35,906 bases of DNA from an uncultured archaeon (GTDB taxonomy: Archaea; Aenigmatarchaeota; Aenigmatarchaeia; CG10238-14; SCSR01): assembly GCA_964475145.1 (NCBI GenBank), contig CAYYVK010000003.1, positions 1-35,906 of the forward strand, in the 5' to 3' direction. A model generated the notes under the pieces. That model searched no databases and had not been told where the DNA came from. It saw nothing but the letters and a program-made list of their open reading frames with translations. Shown here in pieces: positions 1 through 28,242 of the stretch (its first letter is position 1; each line of letters starts with the position of its first letter). The position numbers were made by a program, and so were the translations under genes.

Positions 1-1487
1 TCTACTGAAAGATCATAGACATATCCTTCAAACTCGATCTTTCTTATCTCCTTAATTTTATCCCAAAAGATATCGTTAGTTACTAGCTCGATTAATTTCT
101 TTCCGTCAACAGGATTGTTAAGCTTTACAACATTTCCCATATTCTCGTTCACAAGCCTTAGCAAATGTTCCCTACCTATATTTGATCCTTTCAAATATAC
201 CTTATGCCAACTCTTCCAATGGGAATATGAATTAAACCAGCGTCTAAATACATACTTTAACTCTCTGTATACATGCTTAGGCAATGGTATTATATCAGCA
301 ACTTCATGCCATTTCCTGCATAAAAGTTCGTTTAATTTTTTCTTCTTGTATTCTTGCTCAAAGTTTATGAATCTCGCAAAATTCTTCAAAAACCTTTTAG
401 AAGATATTCTGCATTCCCAGTATTCCTTGCCTTGTTTATCCTTATAAAAGCTTTTCCTCAGAACTATACCAAAATTGAGCAAAAGTGTCTCTAAATCCTT
501 TGCCAAATTTGCAGAATATGTGGAAAGCTTTACCTCATTCTTACTAACCCAACCTTCTGCTGAAAACAAACCCTTCAAAAATTCAGACTTTAGTTCTTGC
601 CTAAAGGAGAATACAACCTCTGGTATTCTCTTATTAAAGGAATCTCCAGTAAAACCAAGATTAATCATAAGTTGCTTAAGTAAAGAAGAGTTTATCATAA
701 CAGAAAATCCATCAGAATGTCTCTTCGGAGAAATACCATACTTTTTACAAAAGCTCTCCAACCTTCTTAAAAATTCTTCATCACTCATAGTTATTATGAT
801 GCTATTTTTGTCATAGCGCCCATCACCAACCCAACAGCCTAACAAGAATGCAAAATCCTTATCAATTTTAAACTTGGCTGGAAGGCTTAGTCTGCCTTTT
901 AAGACATAAAAGTCTTCCAATTCTGCTTCACTAAAGTAGTTTTTTATTTTTCTAAACAAGCTAATAGGTAAAACTCCTTTAGTTCTGTAGAACCTTCTTT
1001 TACTCCTCAACCTAGTAGGTATGTTCTCTATAAGGAACTTCCTACCTTCTTTACTTTTTAGAAAATCTTTAAGCTTTTCGCTTTTCACGAAAACTTTATT
1101 GTCTTTGAGTACTTCTATTAAATCGATTTCATCTATACTTTCTGGCAATACAAGAAACCTTGGAGTAGCTATGTAAGAACCTTCTCTTAATTCTTGAACC
1201 TTTACAGGCACTATTGATAGATCTTGAGATAGAGAAAAGAGTGAGTGGTCACCAGTTGTCTTTATCATTTTTCCTGAAGCTAACAGAATTTCGTACAGAG
1301 GTTTTTTGACTTTATGTCTAAAAATTTTTCTTACTCTTCTAAACTCAACTCTACCCTCTTTATTTACCGATAAAACTTCAAGGTTAGCTGGGAATACTTC
1401 ATCAGAAGCATCTAACAGTTCCTTTATTTTTCTCCTTTTGATTTTCCCATCTTCCTTCAAAAGAATTTCTTCTTCTCCACTAACACT
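1..1487 (-). mobile_element. Intein with LAGLIDADG homing endonuclease (C-terminal splice junction just outside the window)
   Basis: Block A SVSGEEEIL starts at 1487 directly after IED. Block B IKTTGDHSLF (~1265-1236). LAGLIDADG-type helices FAFLLGCWVGDG (~855-820) and EFLKGLFSAEG (~585-553). Block F region IFWDKIKEI...GYVYDLSV at the window edge. Confidence 0.9.
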
Positions 1488-2312
1488 ATCCTCTATTGAT
1501 AGCACTCTCTGGTTTGGAGGTATGAAATTCATGAAAACGTTCAGCAAAGAAGTTTTACCAGTAGCGGTACCACCAGTTACTATCATGTTTAGCTCGTATT
1601 GAACAGCAAGCCAAATCCAAGCAGCAACCTCATAGTTTAAAGTCTTATTCTCTATAAAGTCGACTATTGTCCAAGGTGATCTTCTAAACTTTCTTATTGT
1701 TATCGTGTTACCAAAAGTTGAAATTGGAAAAAGTGTTGCATTTACCCTGTCTCCAGTAGGTAAATGAGCATCCATCAAAGGATTCAAAATTGTTATCTGC
1801 CTTCCTACTTTTCTACCTATGTTGTTCGCGTAATTTAGAATGTCGTTCTCAGATTTTATCTGCAAAGTTGTCTTAAGCCATCCAAACTTTTTATGATAGA
1901 CCCAAACAGGCTCTCTTACACCATTAACAACTACTTCTTCTACGTTAGGGTCTGCTAGCAAAAATTCTATCCTGCCAAGACCAAACATCTCCTGAATAAG
2001 CAAACCTATTAGTATATCTCTTATTTCCTTTGTTAAAGTTGGTATTTCCTTCTGGAGTAAGGCAGTTCCTTTCTCGTAGAAAGTTTTTTTCATTTTTTCT
2101 ATAGAAGAGGGGTCCATCAGTTCTGTTGTTTTAACTGGGATTTCTGTCAAAAGAGTAGTTCTTACCTTATCCAGCAAAGCTAAAGTAGCAGGTGCAACTT
2201 CTGGAACTTTCAAATCATAAACAGGTACAAAATCTTTTGTCCTCACTATGTTTATAACCGTCTTTATTCTATCAGCTTCCACGCTATAACTTTCCAAAAT
2301 TTTTTCTGCCAC
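1..2312 (-). CDS. Type II/IV secretion or pilus-assembly ATPase (VirB11/TadA/CpaF-like), intein-containing, runs off the left edge
   Basis: Read manually on the minus strand from GTG at 2312: MAEKILESYSVEAD...GLGRIEFLLADPNVEEVVVNG...DAHLPTGDRVNA...ITIRKF...Walker A GGTATGKTS...VLSIED, then intein sequence. The frame at position 1 matches the start frame. Probably missing from the ORF track because the stop lies outside the window. Confidence 0.9.
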   Translation of the reverse strand, partial: MAEKILESYSVEADRIKTVINIVRTKDFVPVYDLKVPEVAPATLALLDKVRTTLLTEIPVKTTELMDPSSIEKMKKTFYEKGTALLQKEIPTLTKEIRDILIGLLIQEMFGLGRIEFLLADPNVEEVVVNGVREPVWVYHKKFGWLKTTLQIKSENDILNYANNIGRKVGRQITILNPLMDAHLPTGDRVNATLFPISTFGNTITIRKFRRSPWTIVDFIENKTLNYEVAAWIWLAVQYELNMIVTGGTATGKTSLLNVFMNFIPPNQRVLSIEDSVSGEEEILLKEDGKIKRRKIKELLDASDEVFPANLEVLSVNKEGRVEFRRVRKIFRHKVKKPLYEILLASGKMIKTTGDHSLFSLSQDLSIVPVKVQELREGSYIATPRFLVLPESIDEIDLIEVLKDNKVFVKSEKLKDFLKSKEGRKFLIENIPTRLRSKRRFYRTKGVLPISLFRKIKNYFSEAELEDFYVLKGRLSLPAKFKIDKDFAFLLGCWVGDGRYDKNSIIITMSDEEFLRRLESFCKKYGISPKRHSDGFSVMINSSLLKQLMINLGFTGDSFNKRIPEVVFSFRQELKSEFLKGLFSAEGWVSKNEVKLSTYSANLAKDLETLLLNFGIVLRKSFYKDKQGKEYWECRISSKRFLKNFARFINFEQEYKKKKLNELLCRKWHEVADIIPLPKHVYRELKYVFRRWFNSYSHWKSWHKVYLKGSNIGREHLLRLVNENMGNVVKLNNPVDGKKLIELVTNDIFWDKIKEIRKIEFEGYVYDLSV

Positions 2313-25683: not shown

Positions 25684-25718
25684 TCACTTTGCACGGGGTC
25701 GTGCTAGATGGTGAGTGA

Positions 25719-25988
25719 ATGCAGAAAAATACTTTAAAAAACATAATTAAAATAGTTAAATGCTTAGAAGAGTCAAAAAATGACTGGATTTGGCTAACAG
25801 CTATAGCAAAACGCGTAAAATTGCATAGAACTACTGTTTCTCGCCTTATCAACAAGCACTTAACACTTTTTATTGAACAAACCACACTAGAGCCTTTCAA
25901 CATAAAAATGATAAAACTTAAGCCAGATTCTAACCTTCAGTCAATCCTAAAATTTTTACTAATAAAAGAGAAAGTCAAGAAAAGTTAG
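25719..25988 (+). CDS. Small HTH DNA-binding protein
   Basis: IWLTAIAKRVKLHRTTVSRLINKHL; SD GGTGAG upstream of ATG. Confidence 0.75.
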   Translation: MQKNTLKNIIKIVKCLEESKNDWIWLTAIAKRVKLHRTTVSRLINKHLTLFIEQTTLEPFNIKMIKLKPDSNLQSILKFLLIKEKVKKS

Positions 25989-26700
25989 AACTTGAGGGAG
26001 TTTGAGAGCTTTCAATCGCTTCAAAGCGATTTGAATCGGTTTTTCCTGTATATCTAACCCATCCTTTGTTATACTTTTCGAATCGCTCAATTTCAGTAGT
26101 CCTCTTGAGCATATTTGATAGCAATCCGCGAAGAGCTGAAATGCTTATTCCAAGCTTAGACGCCAATTCTTCATAGCTTATTTCCTTAGCCCCCTTAACT
26201 ATCTCTAATAGTTCTTTCATTTTATTTGTTAATGGTAATTGTGCTTCAATTTTTTCTATTTTTCCTGTCAGTTCCGATCTTATAGGTTCAGGAGTCTTTT
26301 TTACTATGTTTTTAAGGTCAACAAGTATATTTTGAATTATTTCAAATCTTTTTTGATCATTTTCTTCATGAATTTTAACTAAATTAATAAATTCTGATAT
26401 TTTTTCATCAAATTTATGATCAAACCAGTCTTTTGTTAATATTTGAGATTCAATTCTATCTAAAGAAGATTCAATCCTTTTAATAAAATGCGCTGTATAG
26501 CCAGCTGCAACACCTAATTGTAAAGAATCTTTCTGAAGTTCCAACCTAGCTTGAGGCTGAAGTTCTTCTTCGCTTTGAAGCGCTTCAAAGCGATTTAAAT
26601 CTATACTTGAAGCGCTTTGAAGCGATGTTGCATCGCTTTGAAGCGCTTCCTTCTTGCCTCTTACTCTTAATATTTGTTTAATTTTGTCCCAAAAACCCAC
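25975..26700 (-). CDS. Uncharacterised protein: N-terminal amphipathic helix, coiled coil, C-terminal winged helix
   Basis: MGFWDKIKQIL (GTG 26700; TTG 26709 possible), helical core, LTNKMKELLEIV...ISYEELASKLGISISALRGLLSNM...GWVRY. Confidence 0.75.
   Translation of the reverse strand: MGFWDKIKQILRVRGKKEALQSDATSLQSASSIDLNRFEALQSEEELQPQARLELQKDSLQLGVAAGYTAHFIKRIESSLDRIESQILTKDWFDHKFDEKISEFINLVKIHEENDQKRFEIIQNILVDLKNIVKKTPEPIRSELTGKIEKIEAQLPLTNKMKELLEIVKGAKEISYEELASKLGISISALRGLLSNMLKRTTEIERFEKYNKGWVRYTGKTDSNRFEAIESSQTPSSSNFS
26007..26038. repeat. Three tandem 10-bp palindromic units (array A)
   Basis: AG-CTTTCAATCG-CTTCAAAGCG-ATTTGAATCG; contains AATCGCTT-CA-AAGCGATT at 26014-26031. Confidence 0.85.
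26571..26648. repeat. About seven tandem ~10-bp palindromic units (array B)
   Basis: CGCTTTGAAG CGCTTCAAAG CGATTTAAAT CTATACTTGAAG CGCTTTGAAG CGATGTTGCAT CGCTTTGAAG CGCTT; CG at 26571, 26581, 26591, 26613, 26623, 26634, 26644. Confidence 0.9.
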
Positions 26701-26984
26701 ACCAATCAATTATTCTTTAAATTCTCACTTTATAAAGTTTTTCTTGAACACTCACTTTCTAACATTTGTTATTGTTTAAGAGTTATCGTTATTTAGTCGC
26801 ACGAAACTCTCACTTTACTAAGGAACAGACGAGTTCGCTTGTCCCCCCAACCAATACACTCTAAAATATATGTCTCATCACATATTTCAACCAACTTCAC
26901 GTTTTTCTTGATTATTATATACGGTAAAATATATATAAAAGAATAGAAAAATATTTATTAAATTAGTATAATTGTACCAAAAAT

Positions 26985-27197
26985 ATGGAAAAATTTTTAA
27001 TAGCATTTGATATACCGGCCAATGAGCGTCTTTTCAGGAAAAAAATAAACCAACTTCTAAAGAAAATTGGTGCAAAAATGGTTCAAAAGTCACTTTGGGA
27101 ATCAGAGGATCTTCCTAAGTTGTTAAGGATTGCTATATTAATCAAAAATATTGGTGGTATTGCTTACGTTTACCAAGGTAAAGTTCTGTTTTCATGA
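26985..27197 (+). CDS. Stand-alone Cas2/VapD/PaaX-central-domain-like small protein
   Basis: FLIAFDIP...RKKINQLLKKIGAKMVQKSLW matches the Cas2-fold pattern hhh(Y/F)DI...R...L...G...Q.SVW. Confidence 0.7.
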   Translation: MEKFLIAFDIPANERLFRKKINQLLKKIGAKMVQKSLWESEDLPKLLRIAILIKNIGGIAYVYQGKVLFS

Positions 27198-27310: not shown

Positions 27311-27340
27311 ACTTAGAGATAATAAATATTATGAGTTATG
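27311..27340. other. dif-like site 2 overlapping the recombinase start codon
   Basis: ACTTAGAGATAA-TAAATA-TTATGAGTTATG; left arm identical to site 1, right arm degenerate. Confidence 0.6.
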
Positions 27341-28242
27341 AACTAACAAACTTCAATAGTGTAAACAAGATGCTAGGTGAATTAAAACTCTTAACAAGAA
27401 GTAAAAACACAGAACTTACTTACCTAAAAAGTTTAAAAAGCTTCTTCAACCAAATAGGAGTTTCAGACCCTGATGCGTTAATAGAAAAAATAAAGAATAA
27501 AGAGATTGATGCAAACGAAATTTATAAGCAGTATGTTGTTAGCTTAGCTTCTCGAAACATTGCTCCAAAATCTGTGGCAGCATGGGCAGCTGGTGTTAAA
27601 AAATTCTTTTCAGCGAATGGGATTGAGGTAAAACCTATACCCATAAAGGTATATCCTCTTCATGAAGATACCCTACCAACAAAAGAAGATCTAAAAAAAG
27701 TATTAGAGAGTTCTTCTTTAAAAGCTCGTTTATGTATTCTAATCTTGTTGTCCTCAGGTTTAAGAGTAGGAGAATTGCATCAACTTAAAGTTGGTGACAT
27801 AGAGTTAGATAGAGACCCTCCTGTGATAAGGGTAAGAGGAATTAGCGCCAAGGAAAGAAAAAGTAGGATAACATTCATTTCGCCACAAGCCAAGGAGGTT
27901 TTGAAAGAATACTTAGAAAAGAGAAAATTAAGCGAAAAGCTAACACCTGACTCACCTTTACTCGTCACAGATGATGGAGAGCCTATGTCCTACCAGAATC
28001 TACAGTACATTCTAAACAACGCTTTCAAAAAAGTTGCAAAAAAGGTTGGGAAACGTTATTCCTTACATCCACACTCTCTTAGAAAATGGTTCAAAACTCA
28101 ATTGATATCGGCCGGTACTCCTGGCCCGATAGTCGATAGGTTAGTAGGGCATTCTAGATATTTAGCTAGGGAGTACGAGCTTTATACAGAAGAGCAACTT
28201 AGAGAATGGTATATAAAAAGTATGGATGTCTTGAGGATTTAA
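27331..28242 (+). CDS. Tyrosine recombinase, XerA-like
   Basis: SSGLRVGE (R), AKERK (K), HPHSLRK (H-x-x-R), LVGH, REYELY (Y); N-terminal core-binding domain; 303 aa. Confidence 0.92.
   Translation: MSYELTNFNSVNKMLGELKLLTRSKNTELTYLKSLKSFFNQIGVSDPDALIEKIKNKEIDANEIYKQYVVSLASRNIAPKSVAAWAAGVKKFFSANGIEVKPIPIKVYPLHEDTLPTKEDLKKVLESSSLKARLCILILLSSGLRVGELHQLKVGDIELDRDPPVIRVRGISAKERKSRITFISPQAKEVLKEYLEKRKLSEKLTPDSPLLVTDDGEPMSYQNLQYILNNAFKKVAKKVGKRYSLHPHSLRKWFKTQLISAGTPGPIVDRLVGHSRYLAREYELYTEEQLREWYIKSMDVLRI

Follow-up and report, generated by a model that had tools for sequence, protein, structure and literature searches.

Helically phased palindromic arrays within an archaeal winged-helix gene, candidate binding sites for the gene's own product

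Analysis of a 35,906-nt stretch of contig CAYYVK010000003.1 (the window in what follows) from an uncultured archaeon of the phylum Aenigmatarchaeota revealed a minus-strand gene at 25975 to 26709 that carries two arrays of short palindromic DNA words, one near its 5' end and one at its 3' end. This gene (the array gene) encodes a protein with a winged helix-turn-helix (wHTH). The source genome, labeled G000, is an assembly (GCA_964475145.1) of 617,950 bases in 50 contigs, with 91% completeness and 36.9% G+C. The words are conserved at the level of DNA, are phased with the DNA helix, are unique to one locus of the genome, and occupy two separate blocks. They vary between lineages together with the recognition helix of the encoded protein, which is predicted to form a symmetric dimer with a DNA-binding fold. 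These observations are best explained if a dimer of the gene's own product binds the arrays as phased sites in double-stranded DNA and thereby bridges the two. We consider the chance that this explanation is right to be about even.

Arrays confined to one gene and conserved as DNA

The consensus word CGMTTNNAAKCG has six exact matches in the window, at 26017, 26027, 26571, 26581, 26613, and 26634, compared to a mean of 0.03 and a maximum of 1 in 100 dinucleotide shuffles, none of which reached 6. All six matches fall in the array gene, and a scan of the 617,950-base G000 assembly beyond this gene gave zero matches. A first-pass annotation, made from the letters of the window, had described palindromic units with a 10-bp period at either end of the gene and had noticed no such array elsewhere in the window. 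This description was accurate, and the absence extends to the rest of G000: the genome-wide scan revealed no random scatter but a motif exclusive to one gene. The estimate of about seven units in the 5' array is fair once degenerate units are counted along with the four exact ones. CG dinucleotides are indeed scarce, since the CpG observed/expected ratio of G000 is 0.49. The array gene contains 17 CpGs, 10 of them within the arrays, which span 110 nt, and 7 in the remaining 625 nt.

The 5' array occupies nucleotides 61 to 138 of the open reading frame (ORF) and encodes the linker peptides EALQS, TSLQS, and NRFEALQS; the 3' array, separated from it by 532 nt, encodes the tail peptide DSNRFEAIES. 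Both regions are disordered in the AlphaFold2 model (linker residues 15 to 56, with a predicted local distance difference test [pLDDT] score under 50), in agreement with the earlier assignment of the arrays to a low-complexity linker and tail. The 3' array begins 19 nt beyond the stop codon of the convergent neighbor gene, and its unit AGCTTTCAATCG deviates from the consensus at its first base only. A perfect 24-bp palindrome (26570 to 26593) and two perfectly complementary 18-nt arms (26577 to 26594 and 26632 to 26649) are also present. Mid-gene, the window has a degenerate copy (Table 1), and at this position other genera have a full array, in which the peptide RFKALQSAL corresponds to CGCTTCAAAGCGCTTCAAAGCGCT.

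Comparison of the window with three close relatives (89%, 89%, and 75% protein identity) revealed 67 invariant columns out of 78 in the 5' array and 23 out of 41 in the adjacent linker. Third codon positions were invariant in 24 of 26 cases in the 5' array and in 102 of 160 in the core and wHTH. In the 3' array, 27 of 32 columns were invariant, compared to 13 of 29 in the remaining tail. Within a fast-evolving linker, the arrays stand out as islands of invariance. In a protein alignment, the linkers of more distant homologs show odd peptides (ALQS, RFEA, RFKA, ASKR, DLKR, and AIES) because a single 12-mer is translated in three frames. Three units of 10 bp each add up to a superperiod of 30 bp, or 10 residues, SDLNRFEALQ. 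The 12-mer is also present in all three frames in other genera, where protein identity is about 50%. In 31 unique loci from these genera, the gene regions (27.9 kb) contained 116 copies of the core AAKCGMTT, compared to 12 in the flanks (94.5 kb); 60, 38, and 8 copies lie in the three reading frames, with EALQ, KALQ, QSAS, KRF, and others as peptides. The loci compared here and below are related, and counts over loci do not represent independent events. Codon usage is shifted accordingly in the linkers, where alanine is encoded by GCG in 51 of 92 codons (22 of 142 in the core; 5.8% genome-wide) and arginine by CGC in 18 of 31 (22 of 174 in the core; 2% genome-wide).

For a family-wide comparison, 120 loci were fetched, of which 107 were parsable and 90 unique; 86 extended far enough beyond the stop codon for scoring. 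An exact word of at least 12 nt was common to the 5' linker and the downstream gene region in 68 of these 86 loci, compared to 4 of 166 control windows matched in length. The coding tail contained the downstream copy in 40 loci and the middle of the gene in 13; in 12 loci the copy was wholly past the stop codon, and in 3 it crossed the stop codon. All three stop codons are used. Copies past the stop codon indicate that the arrays are not driven by the peptide. The constraint thus acts on DNA rather than on protein, as had been proposed from the noncodon length of the unit: homologs keep the DNA word, and the encoded peptide shifts with the frame. Of the two outcomes named as refuting that proposal, random genome-wide scatter and peptides kept while palindromes are lost, neither was observed.

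Successive core distances clustered at 9 to 11 bp (34 cases), 20 to 22 bp (15), 30 to 33 bp (7), 42 bp (3), and 51 to 53 bp (3). The best-fit period was 10.5 to 10.7 bp (R of 0.81, versus 0.74 at 10.0 bp). Among the 38 loci with a significant autocorrelation in the 5' linker, the top period was 10 in 12 loci, 21 in 8, and 30 or 31 in 5. The spacing tracks the repeat of B-DNA and not the codon, which suggests that double-stranded DNA is recognized on one of its faces. All 17 loci of the window's word class have a 5' array together with a mid-gene array, a 3' array, or both. The five loci without a 3' array (L008, L009, L016, L018, and L029) have a mid-gene array instead, in which the conserved helix KRFEIIQN has been recoded to spell the word and reads RFKALQSAL. 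A second, separate array in every one of the 17 loci fits bridging and the earlier proposal that the arrays could loop.

Among 61 related genomes, 13 contain the exact 12-mer CGCTTYRAAGCG, at 43 sites in total, of which 42 are in the homologous gene; a reversed-pattern control gave 4 sites. The lone site elsewhere (G020:C2:42058) coincides with the start of an ORF for an unrelated membrane protein and is not part of an array. Other lineages use other words, namely, CGATACG(A/T)ATCG, TCAATCA/(CAAT)n, GCGATGCA, AGCGCTTCGAAGCGCT, and AAGCGCTTAAAGCGCTT. Within every lineage, one word is common to the 5' and downstream arrays, which have switched together. In another genus, CGATACGNATCG has 23 sites in three of five genomes, all at the two ends of the homolog (control, 0), and these sites step by 10 bp and overlap at CG. 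Two unrelated words have a common CG-N8-CG 10-bp architecture. A complementary RNA acting in trans was considered as a partner of the arrays and rejected, as the palindromic word has no further copy in G000.

The gene's own product as candidate binder

Structure prediction with AlphaFold2 placed long helices at residues 58 to 89, 93 to 138, and 143 to 157 of the array-gene protein, between the disordered linker that holds the 5' array and the C-terminal tail that holds the 3' array. The wHTH superposes on chains of MarR, ArsR/SmtB, and MecI (VIA; Z of 9 to 10.8 and root mean square deviation [rmsd] of 1.3 to 2.3 over 60 to 66 residues). These matches include DNA-binding domains of MarR/ArsR proteins, 7wze_A (Z of 10.3, rmsd of 1.5 over 65 residues) and 6jmi_A (Z of 9.1, rmsd of 1.3 over 60 residues), and structurally the fold is of the DNA-binding type of MarR/ArsR-type regulators. 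A homodimer model of residues 55 to 226 gave an interface score (ipSAE) of 0.51, compared to 0.02 for the best control; among solved structures, 20 of 30 pairs and 1 of 23 single chains attained this mark. The model runs had at least 45% of contacts in common, with a partner pLDDT of at least 75. The predicted interface is symmetric and may resemble that of MarR/ArsR-type regulators, in which helices flanking the wHTH form the homodimer. The N-terminal helix has a hydrophobic moment of 0.68 (0.52 to 0.74 over six family members), and it could have a role in membrane targeting, for which it is a candidate.

Other searches with this protein gave no assignment. A sequence-profile search of the PDB gave a best E value of 0.12, and Foldseek against the PDB gave a best E value of 3.5e-3, with no match at 0.001 or better. 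The top scores in the ESM Atlas (0.82 to 0.86) are in the range of chance and belong to MarR/TrmB-type or unnamed archaeal clusters. No informative structural match was obtained for the helical core, where the VIA lists were full of wHTH chains and residues 58 to 100 were barely probed. No ParB-type family was among the Pfam and NCBIfam matches at E values of up to 0.1.

The binder had been presumed to be the wHTH of the host gene. In support of this, the first residue of the recognition helix (residue 190) is E or Q in 26 of 26 loci of the TCAATCA class and in 0 of 34 loci of the AAKCGMTT class. Residue 199 is N in 27 of the 34 AAKCGMTT-class loci and K in all three CGATACG-class loci. The convergent neighbor gene also encodes a wHTH, the recognition helix of which (LHHKTVSRLI) is identical in every word class. 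Covariation with the word in one recognition helix and not in the other, together with the predicted symmetric dimer, suggests that the gene's own wHTH is the best candidate binder; this part of the earlier proposal gained support as a candidacy.

From these features we infer the binder, the bridging, and every functional consequence as follows. The core of the site would be the 8-bp palindrome AAGCGCTT, equivalent to the 12-mer CGCTTYRAAGCG overlapping at CG. As the sites recur with each helical turn, all of them would lie on one side of the helix. The gene product, a symmetric dimer formed via helices 111 to 159 with two C-terminal winged helices, would bind these sites cooperatively. The second array is always 220 to 650 bp downstream, mid-gene or at the 3' end, and bound proteins could therefore bridge the arrays and loop or coat the gene. 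Negative autoregulation would be the most likely outcome, through a roadblock at +60 to +140 and a second roadblock at the 3' end that would meet transcription from the convergent neighbor. Through its N-terminal amphipathic helix, the protein could be titrated off the DNA, for example, to the membrane. Alternatively, the arrays might serve as the chromosome's only handle for the protein, as a tether or centromere-like site.

This last outcome can be stated more strongly: the gene would be both a coding sequence and the chromosome's sole attachment site for its own product, a one-gene handle in tiny DPANN cells. We regard this as rather unlikely. The dimeric winged helix would coat the arrays of its own gene, and the N-terminal helix would couple the locus to the membrane or to a ParA/MinD ATPase. 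Site and binder within one gene would explain the joint switching of words across lineages. The single locus per genome, the adaptor-like layout of the protein, and seven unlinked ParA/MinD-like ATPases in 618 kb are in favor of such a handle. These seven P-loop ATPase genes (253 to 269 amino acids [aa]) are distributed over contigs C2, C5, C8, C17, C18 (two genes), and C24, none of them near the array gene. Against the handle, and against the centromere-like role that had been proposed, no motor gene was found in the locus among the conserved neighbors and the window genes, and orc1/cdc6 is located at a distance of 105 kb (G010) and 142 kb (G029) on the same contig. Proximity to the origin was rejected on these two contigs, where the distance was measurable, with an orc1/cdc6 match standing in for unmapped origins.

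Several observations weigh against the explanation by phased sites for the gene's own dimer. The two main classes were formed after 26 of 89 loci with weak or mixed words had been set aside, and in 2 of these 26 the recognition helix starts with E or Q. The binder is proposed from covariation only, and as the loci are related, the 26 of 26 and 0 of 34 loci cannot be counted as independent cases. The family tree needs five changes of the TCAATCA label, of which the well-supported branches force one origin only; given the poor resolution of the tree, independent covariation is suggested rather than established. The TCAATCA word is nonpalindromic, with periods of 4, 12, 16, 19, or 23 and not 10.5, so a symmetric dimer on phased palindromes describes this class poorly. 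Exact identities between 5' and 3' arrays measure 24 to 39 nt, longer than a binding word needs, which indicates that gene conversion homogenizes the arrays, and some of the array-to-array covariation may therefore be mechanical. The arrays are also not at the promoter but start about 60 nt inside the ORF, with a TATA-like box at 26727 to 26734. As for the fold, RNA- or peptide-binding winged helices (SelB, ESCRT-II, and ScpB) score almost as high as the DNA-binding ones. All wHTH matches in Pfam and NCBIfam were under their cutoffs (best, HTH_Mga with 19.5 bits versus 23); MarR and HTH_5 were not among the Pfam matches of the window protein, and the NCBIfam matches were far under the cutoffs.

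The double-stranded sites might serve another factor, either the convergent 89-aa wHTH protein or a protein encoded elsewhere. Selection on DNA, phasing, and uniqueness do not name the binder, and the neighbor gene is directly downstream in 28 of 31 loci, with the 3' array between both genes. We consider another factor improbable, since the neighbor's helix is unchanged between word classes and the array gene's own helix covaries with the word; furthermore, the neighbor was not found at the CGATACG-class loci L020 and L043 or at L018, L019, L041, and L042, where the arrays are still present. A function in RNA or single-stranded DNA would require mRNA hairpins or DNA cruciforms that control translation, mRNA stability, or transcription. 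The region from 26560 to 26660 folds to -28.9 kcal/mol (z score of -6.0) with two hairpins, and the z score is below -3 in 14 of 17 loci of the window's word class. It is below -3 in only 3 of 12 TCAATCA-class loci, and the long hairpin of the window is not kept in L004 and L005, where the units are direct repeats. In 57 loci, the words shared between 5' and 3' arrays are direct repeats, compared to 11 loci with inverted ones, which speaks against a conserved RNA pairing of the two arrays, and a 10.5-bp B-DNA spacing is meaningless for a single strand. The probability of such a function is accordingly slight. The cruciform potential noticed in the first-pass annotation is real in the window but is not a property of the family.

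Low-complexity peptide repeats in a disordered region, homogenized by slippage or gene conversion and with any selection acting on the peptide, would leave the arrays without a function in cis. The exact 5'/3' identities of up to 39 nt, the location of the arrays in regions of pLDDT under 50, and the NRFEA(L/I)(Q/E)S-type peptides common to tail and linker are consistent with this. It is hard to reconcile with noncoding copies in 12 loci, with one word read in three frames, with rare CpG-rich codons in a CpG-depleted genome, and with 24 of 26 invariant third positions. The 10.5-bp phasing, the recoding of the core helix from RFEIIQN to RFKALQS to carry the word, and the identical CG-N8-CG 10-bp architecture of unrelated words also speak against it, and we see little chance that it is correct. 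Least probable of all, and in our view very unlikely, is that the arrays are substrates of recombination or slippage, through (CAAT)n phase variation, deletion of the core between direct repeats, or targeting by a nuclease domain. (CAAT)3-4 tracts in the TCAATCA class, direct repeats of 17 to 39 nt flanking the core, and a PD-(D/E)xK-like domain in long forms of the protein would suit this. The tracts, however, are short and interrupted in frame, and the window's class has no tetranucleotide tract. In contigs of four public DNA runs, no joints, indels, or variants were found over 25700 to 27000, a comparison at contig level that rare variants and rearrangements would escape; some of these contigs end between 26283 and 26516. 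Among the public sequencing runs listed, none was of RNA. The window lacks the long uninterrupted 5' tract of a phase-variable contingency locus, and no indels that would mark frame-shifted alleles were seen in these contigs.

Gene, family, and genomic neighborhood

The coordinates of the features are listed in Table 1. Translation of the array gene probably starts at GTG 26700 rather than at TTG 26709. This start gives a 241-aa protein with the family N terminus MG... and corresponds to a 241-aa protein record, to an Atlas record starting at residue 4, and to a profile match at 25999 to 26700. With the TATA-like sequence TTTATAAA at 26727 to 26734, it would result in a nearly leaderless transcript, judging by the sequence. 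The upstream intergenic region contains three direct copies of CTCACTTT in 93 bp on the plus strand (26724 to 26731, 26751 to 26758, and 26809 to 26816), the first of which overlaps the TATA-like TTTATAAA. CTCACTTT occurs 35 times in the genome, versus about 24 expected from base composition, and the upstream cluster is the only one. Copies of AAGTGAG around the TATA box are invariant in close relatives. The CTCACTTT copies may be a separate operator.

Table 1. Positions of the array gene, its arrays, its predicted protein elements, and the neighboring gene in the window
Feature	Position	Strand	Details
Array gene	25975..26709	-	244-aa ORF from TTG 26709
5' array	26571..26648	.	Exact 12-mers CGCTTYRAAGCG at 26571, 26581, 26613, 26634, overlapping at CG
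5' array, degenerate units	26591; 26623; 26606, 26644		CGATTTAAATCT at 26591; 13-mer CGATGTTGCATCG at 26623; half units at 26606 and 26644
Degenerate mid-gene copy	26329..26358	.	TTTGAA-ATAA-TTCAAA at conserved helix KRFEIIQN; 63% copy
3' array	26007..26038	.	Three 10-bp-phased units AGCTTTCAATCG, CGCTTCAAAGCG, CGATTTGAATCG; two exact
N-terminal amphipathic helix	26665..26697	-	Residues 5-15, GFWDKIKQILRV; AlphaFold2 model, low confidence
Predicted symmetric homodimer interface helices	26233..26379	-	Residues 111-159, just before the winged helix
Winged helix-turn-helix	26050..26226	-	Residues 162-220, pLDDT about 90 (AlphaFold2)
Recognition helix	26101-26142	-	Residues 190-203; I190 and N199 vary with the DNA word
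Convergent wHTH neighbor	25719..25988	+	89 aa; overlaps the end of the array gene by 14 nt

A search for family proteins gave 165 matches at an E value of 1e-3 or better. The gene is present in 42 of 61 related genomes, mostly in exactly one copy. In a phylum-wide sample, the family was found in 41 of 151 genomes, nearly all from the window's order; by family of genomes, it is present in 27 of 31 (f1), 7 of 7 (f5), 1 of 1 (f6), and 1 of 1 (f2). The other families in this sample gave only four weak matches (E values of 5e-6 to 1e-3) with partial coverage of the profile. Nine long forms of about 340 aa (P0012, P0011, P0035, P0022, P0024, P0032, P0044, P0062, and P0109; also locus L010) have an extra C-terminal PD-(D/E)xK nuclease-like domain after the tail array. 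The fold of this domain matches 2okf_B, an fdxN-element excision controlling factor, as the best structure (Z of 12.1, rmsd of 2.7 over 107 residues), followed by 1y88_A (Z of 10.4) and NucS 2vld_B (Z of 9.2). Residues D262, E275, and K277 are invariant in all nine, and Pfam gave no match for the domain. A PD-(D/E)xK-like domain in the long forms fits DNA as the substrate of the family.

The convergent 89-aa wHTH gene is followed by a methionine aminopeptidase gene in 16 of the 31 unique loci; between genera, the neighbor's wHTH is nearly invariant, recognition helix included. The window is an ordinary core chromosome region with genes for RNA polymerase subunits, ribosomal proteins, EF-2, and EF-1alpha. 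A mobile element was considered and ruled out by these housekeeping surroundings, by conserved synteny, and by the single copy in most related genomes. Upstream of the array gene, a solo 70-aa Cas2-like ORF is encoded at 26985 to 27197 (+) (TIGR01573, 29.0 bits versus a cutoff of 24.5). It is adjoined by an XerA-like tyrosine recombinase gene at 27331 to 28242 (+) (NF040815, 123.6 bits, under the cutoff of 220). A related recombinase (integrase) is encoded upstream of the array gene in just 3 of the 31 loci. At the end of the window, a secretion-type ATPase ORF (type II/IV, T2SSE) at 3 to 2312 (-) is split by a LAGLIDADG intein and runs off the window.

Significance and comparison with known systems

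The array gene provides a clear example of natural dual coding, in which a signal at the DNA level sets linker amino acids in all three frames, recodes a conserved helix, and outlasts a stop codon that has moved upstream of the array. The switches of the word, paired with two positions of the recognition helix, offer a natural series of winged-helix specificities. The family is uncharacterized and near-universal in one order of the Aenigmatarchaeota, without a confident match elsewhere in the phylum. A narrow literature search, of which subscription journals were outside the scope, gave no description of the family or of comparable arrays. To our knowledge, little is known about the organization and segregation of DPANN chromosomes, and a putative single-locus binder with a predicted membrane-type helix is a concrete entry point to this subject.

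In the type II partition system of plasmid R1, small ParR dimers bind cooperatively to two clusters of repeats of about 10 to 11 bp in helical phase. ParR is encoded beside parC, and the ParR-parC complex both autoregulates and acts as a centromere. Two clusters of repeats of about 10 to 11 bp in helical phase are also found here. In contrast to ParR, which is a ribbon-helix-helix protein, the array-gene protein is a winged helix, and its arrays are located inside the ORF and at its 3' end, whereas parC flanks the promoter. Furthermore, the locus is chromosomal and archaeal and has no adjacent motor gene, the ParA/MinD-like genes being on other contigs.

A parS palindrome lies inside the coding sequence of spo0J/parB, so the position of a palindromic site in the gene of its own binder has a precedent. 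Noc from Bacillus subtilis is reported to bind DNA site-specifically and to bring it to the membrane through an amphipathic helix at its N terminus (PMC4331003, PMC8429893); the predicted N-terminal helix of the array-gene protein is a candidate counterpart. No ParB/CTPase domain was detected in the array-gene protein, however, and there is one locus per genome instead of sites near the origin (ParB) or scattered sites (Noc), with phased arrays of 8- to 12-bp words instead of single 16-bp sites.

According to PMC13722703, AspA of the Sulfolobus plasmid pNOB8 binds one 23-bp palindrome upstream of the aspA-parB-parA cassette and then spreads. As described there, AspA resembles the present case in being an archaeal helix-turn-helix protein with a palindrome beside its own gene, and it forms a higher-order protein-DNA structure. 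The arrays described here are inside the gene, with no such cassette. AspA (4rs8_B) was a weak Foldseek match of the array-gene protein (rank 40, E value of 0.025).

Repressor sites within coding sequences are found in lac, where O2 lies in lacZ, and in gal, where OI lies in galE. A roadblock of LacI at O3, at the end of lacI, is reported to limit its own transcript (PMC3711431). Such operators share with the arrays the location in coding sequence, and looping over hundreds of base pairs and a 3' roadblock are known from them. They are single, however, and the arrays are multiunit and phased and set linker residues in three frames; moreover, the only sites of the genome are here in the gene of the presumed binder itself.

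Adaptors of archaeal ParA-like ATPases, SegB and HpaB, are reported to contact the ATPase through the N terminus (PMC8682754, PMC13722703). In these accounts, they have an N-terminal helix or tail, a flexible region, and a C-terminal DNA-binding dimer (PMC8682754, PMC13722703), a layout similar to that predicted for the array-gene protein. They are presented there as ribbon-helix-helix proteins encoded beside the ATPase gene, in contrast to the winged helix described here, which has no ATPase gene nearby. Lacking a ribbon-helix-helix, a ParB domain, a linked motor, a promoter position, and scattered sites, the array gene would thus work like these known systems without being a member of any of them.

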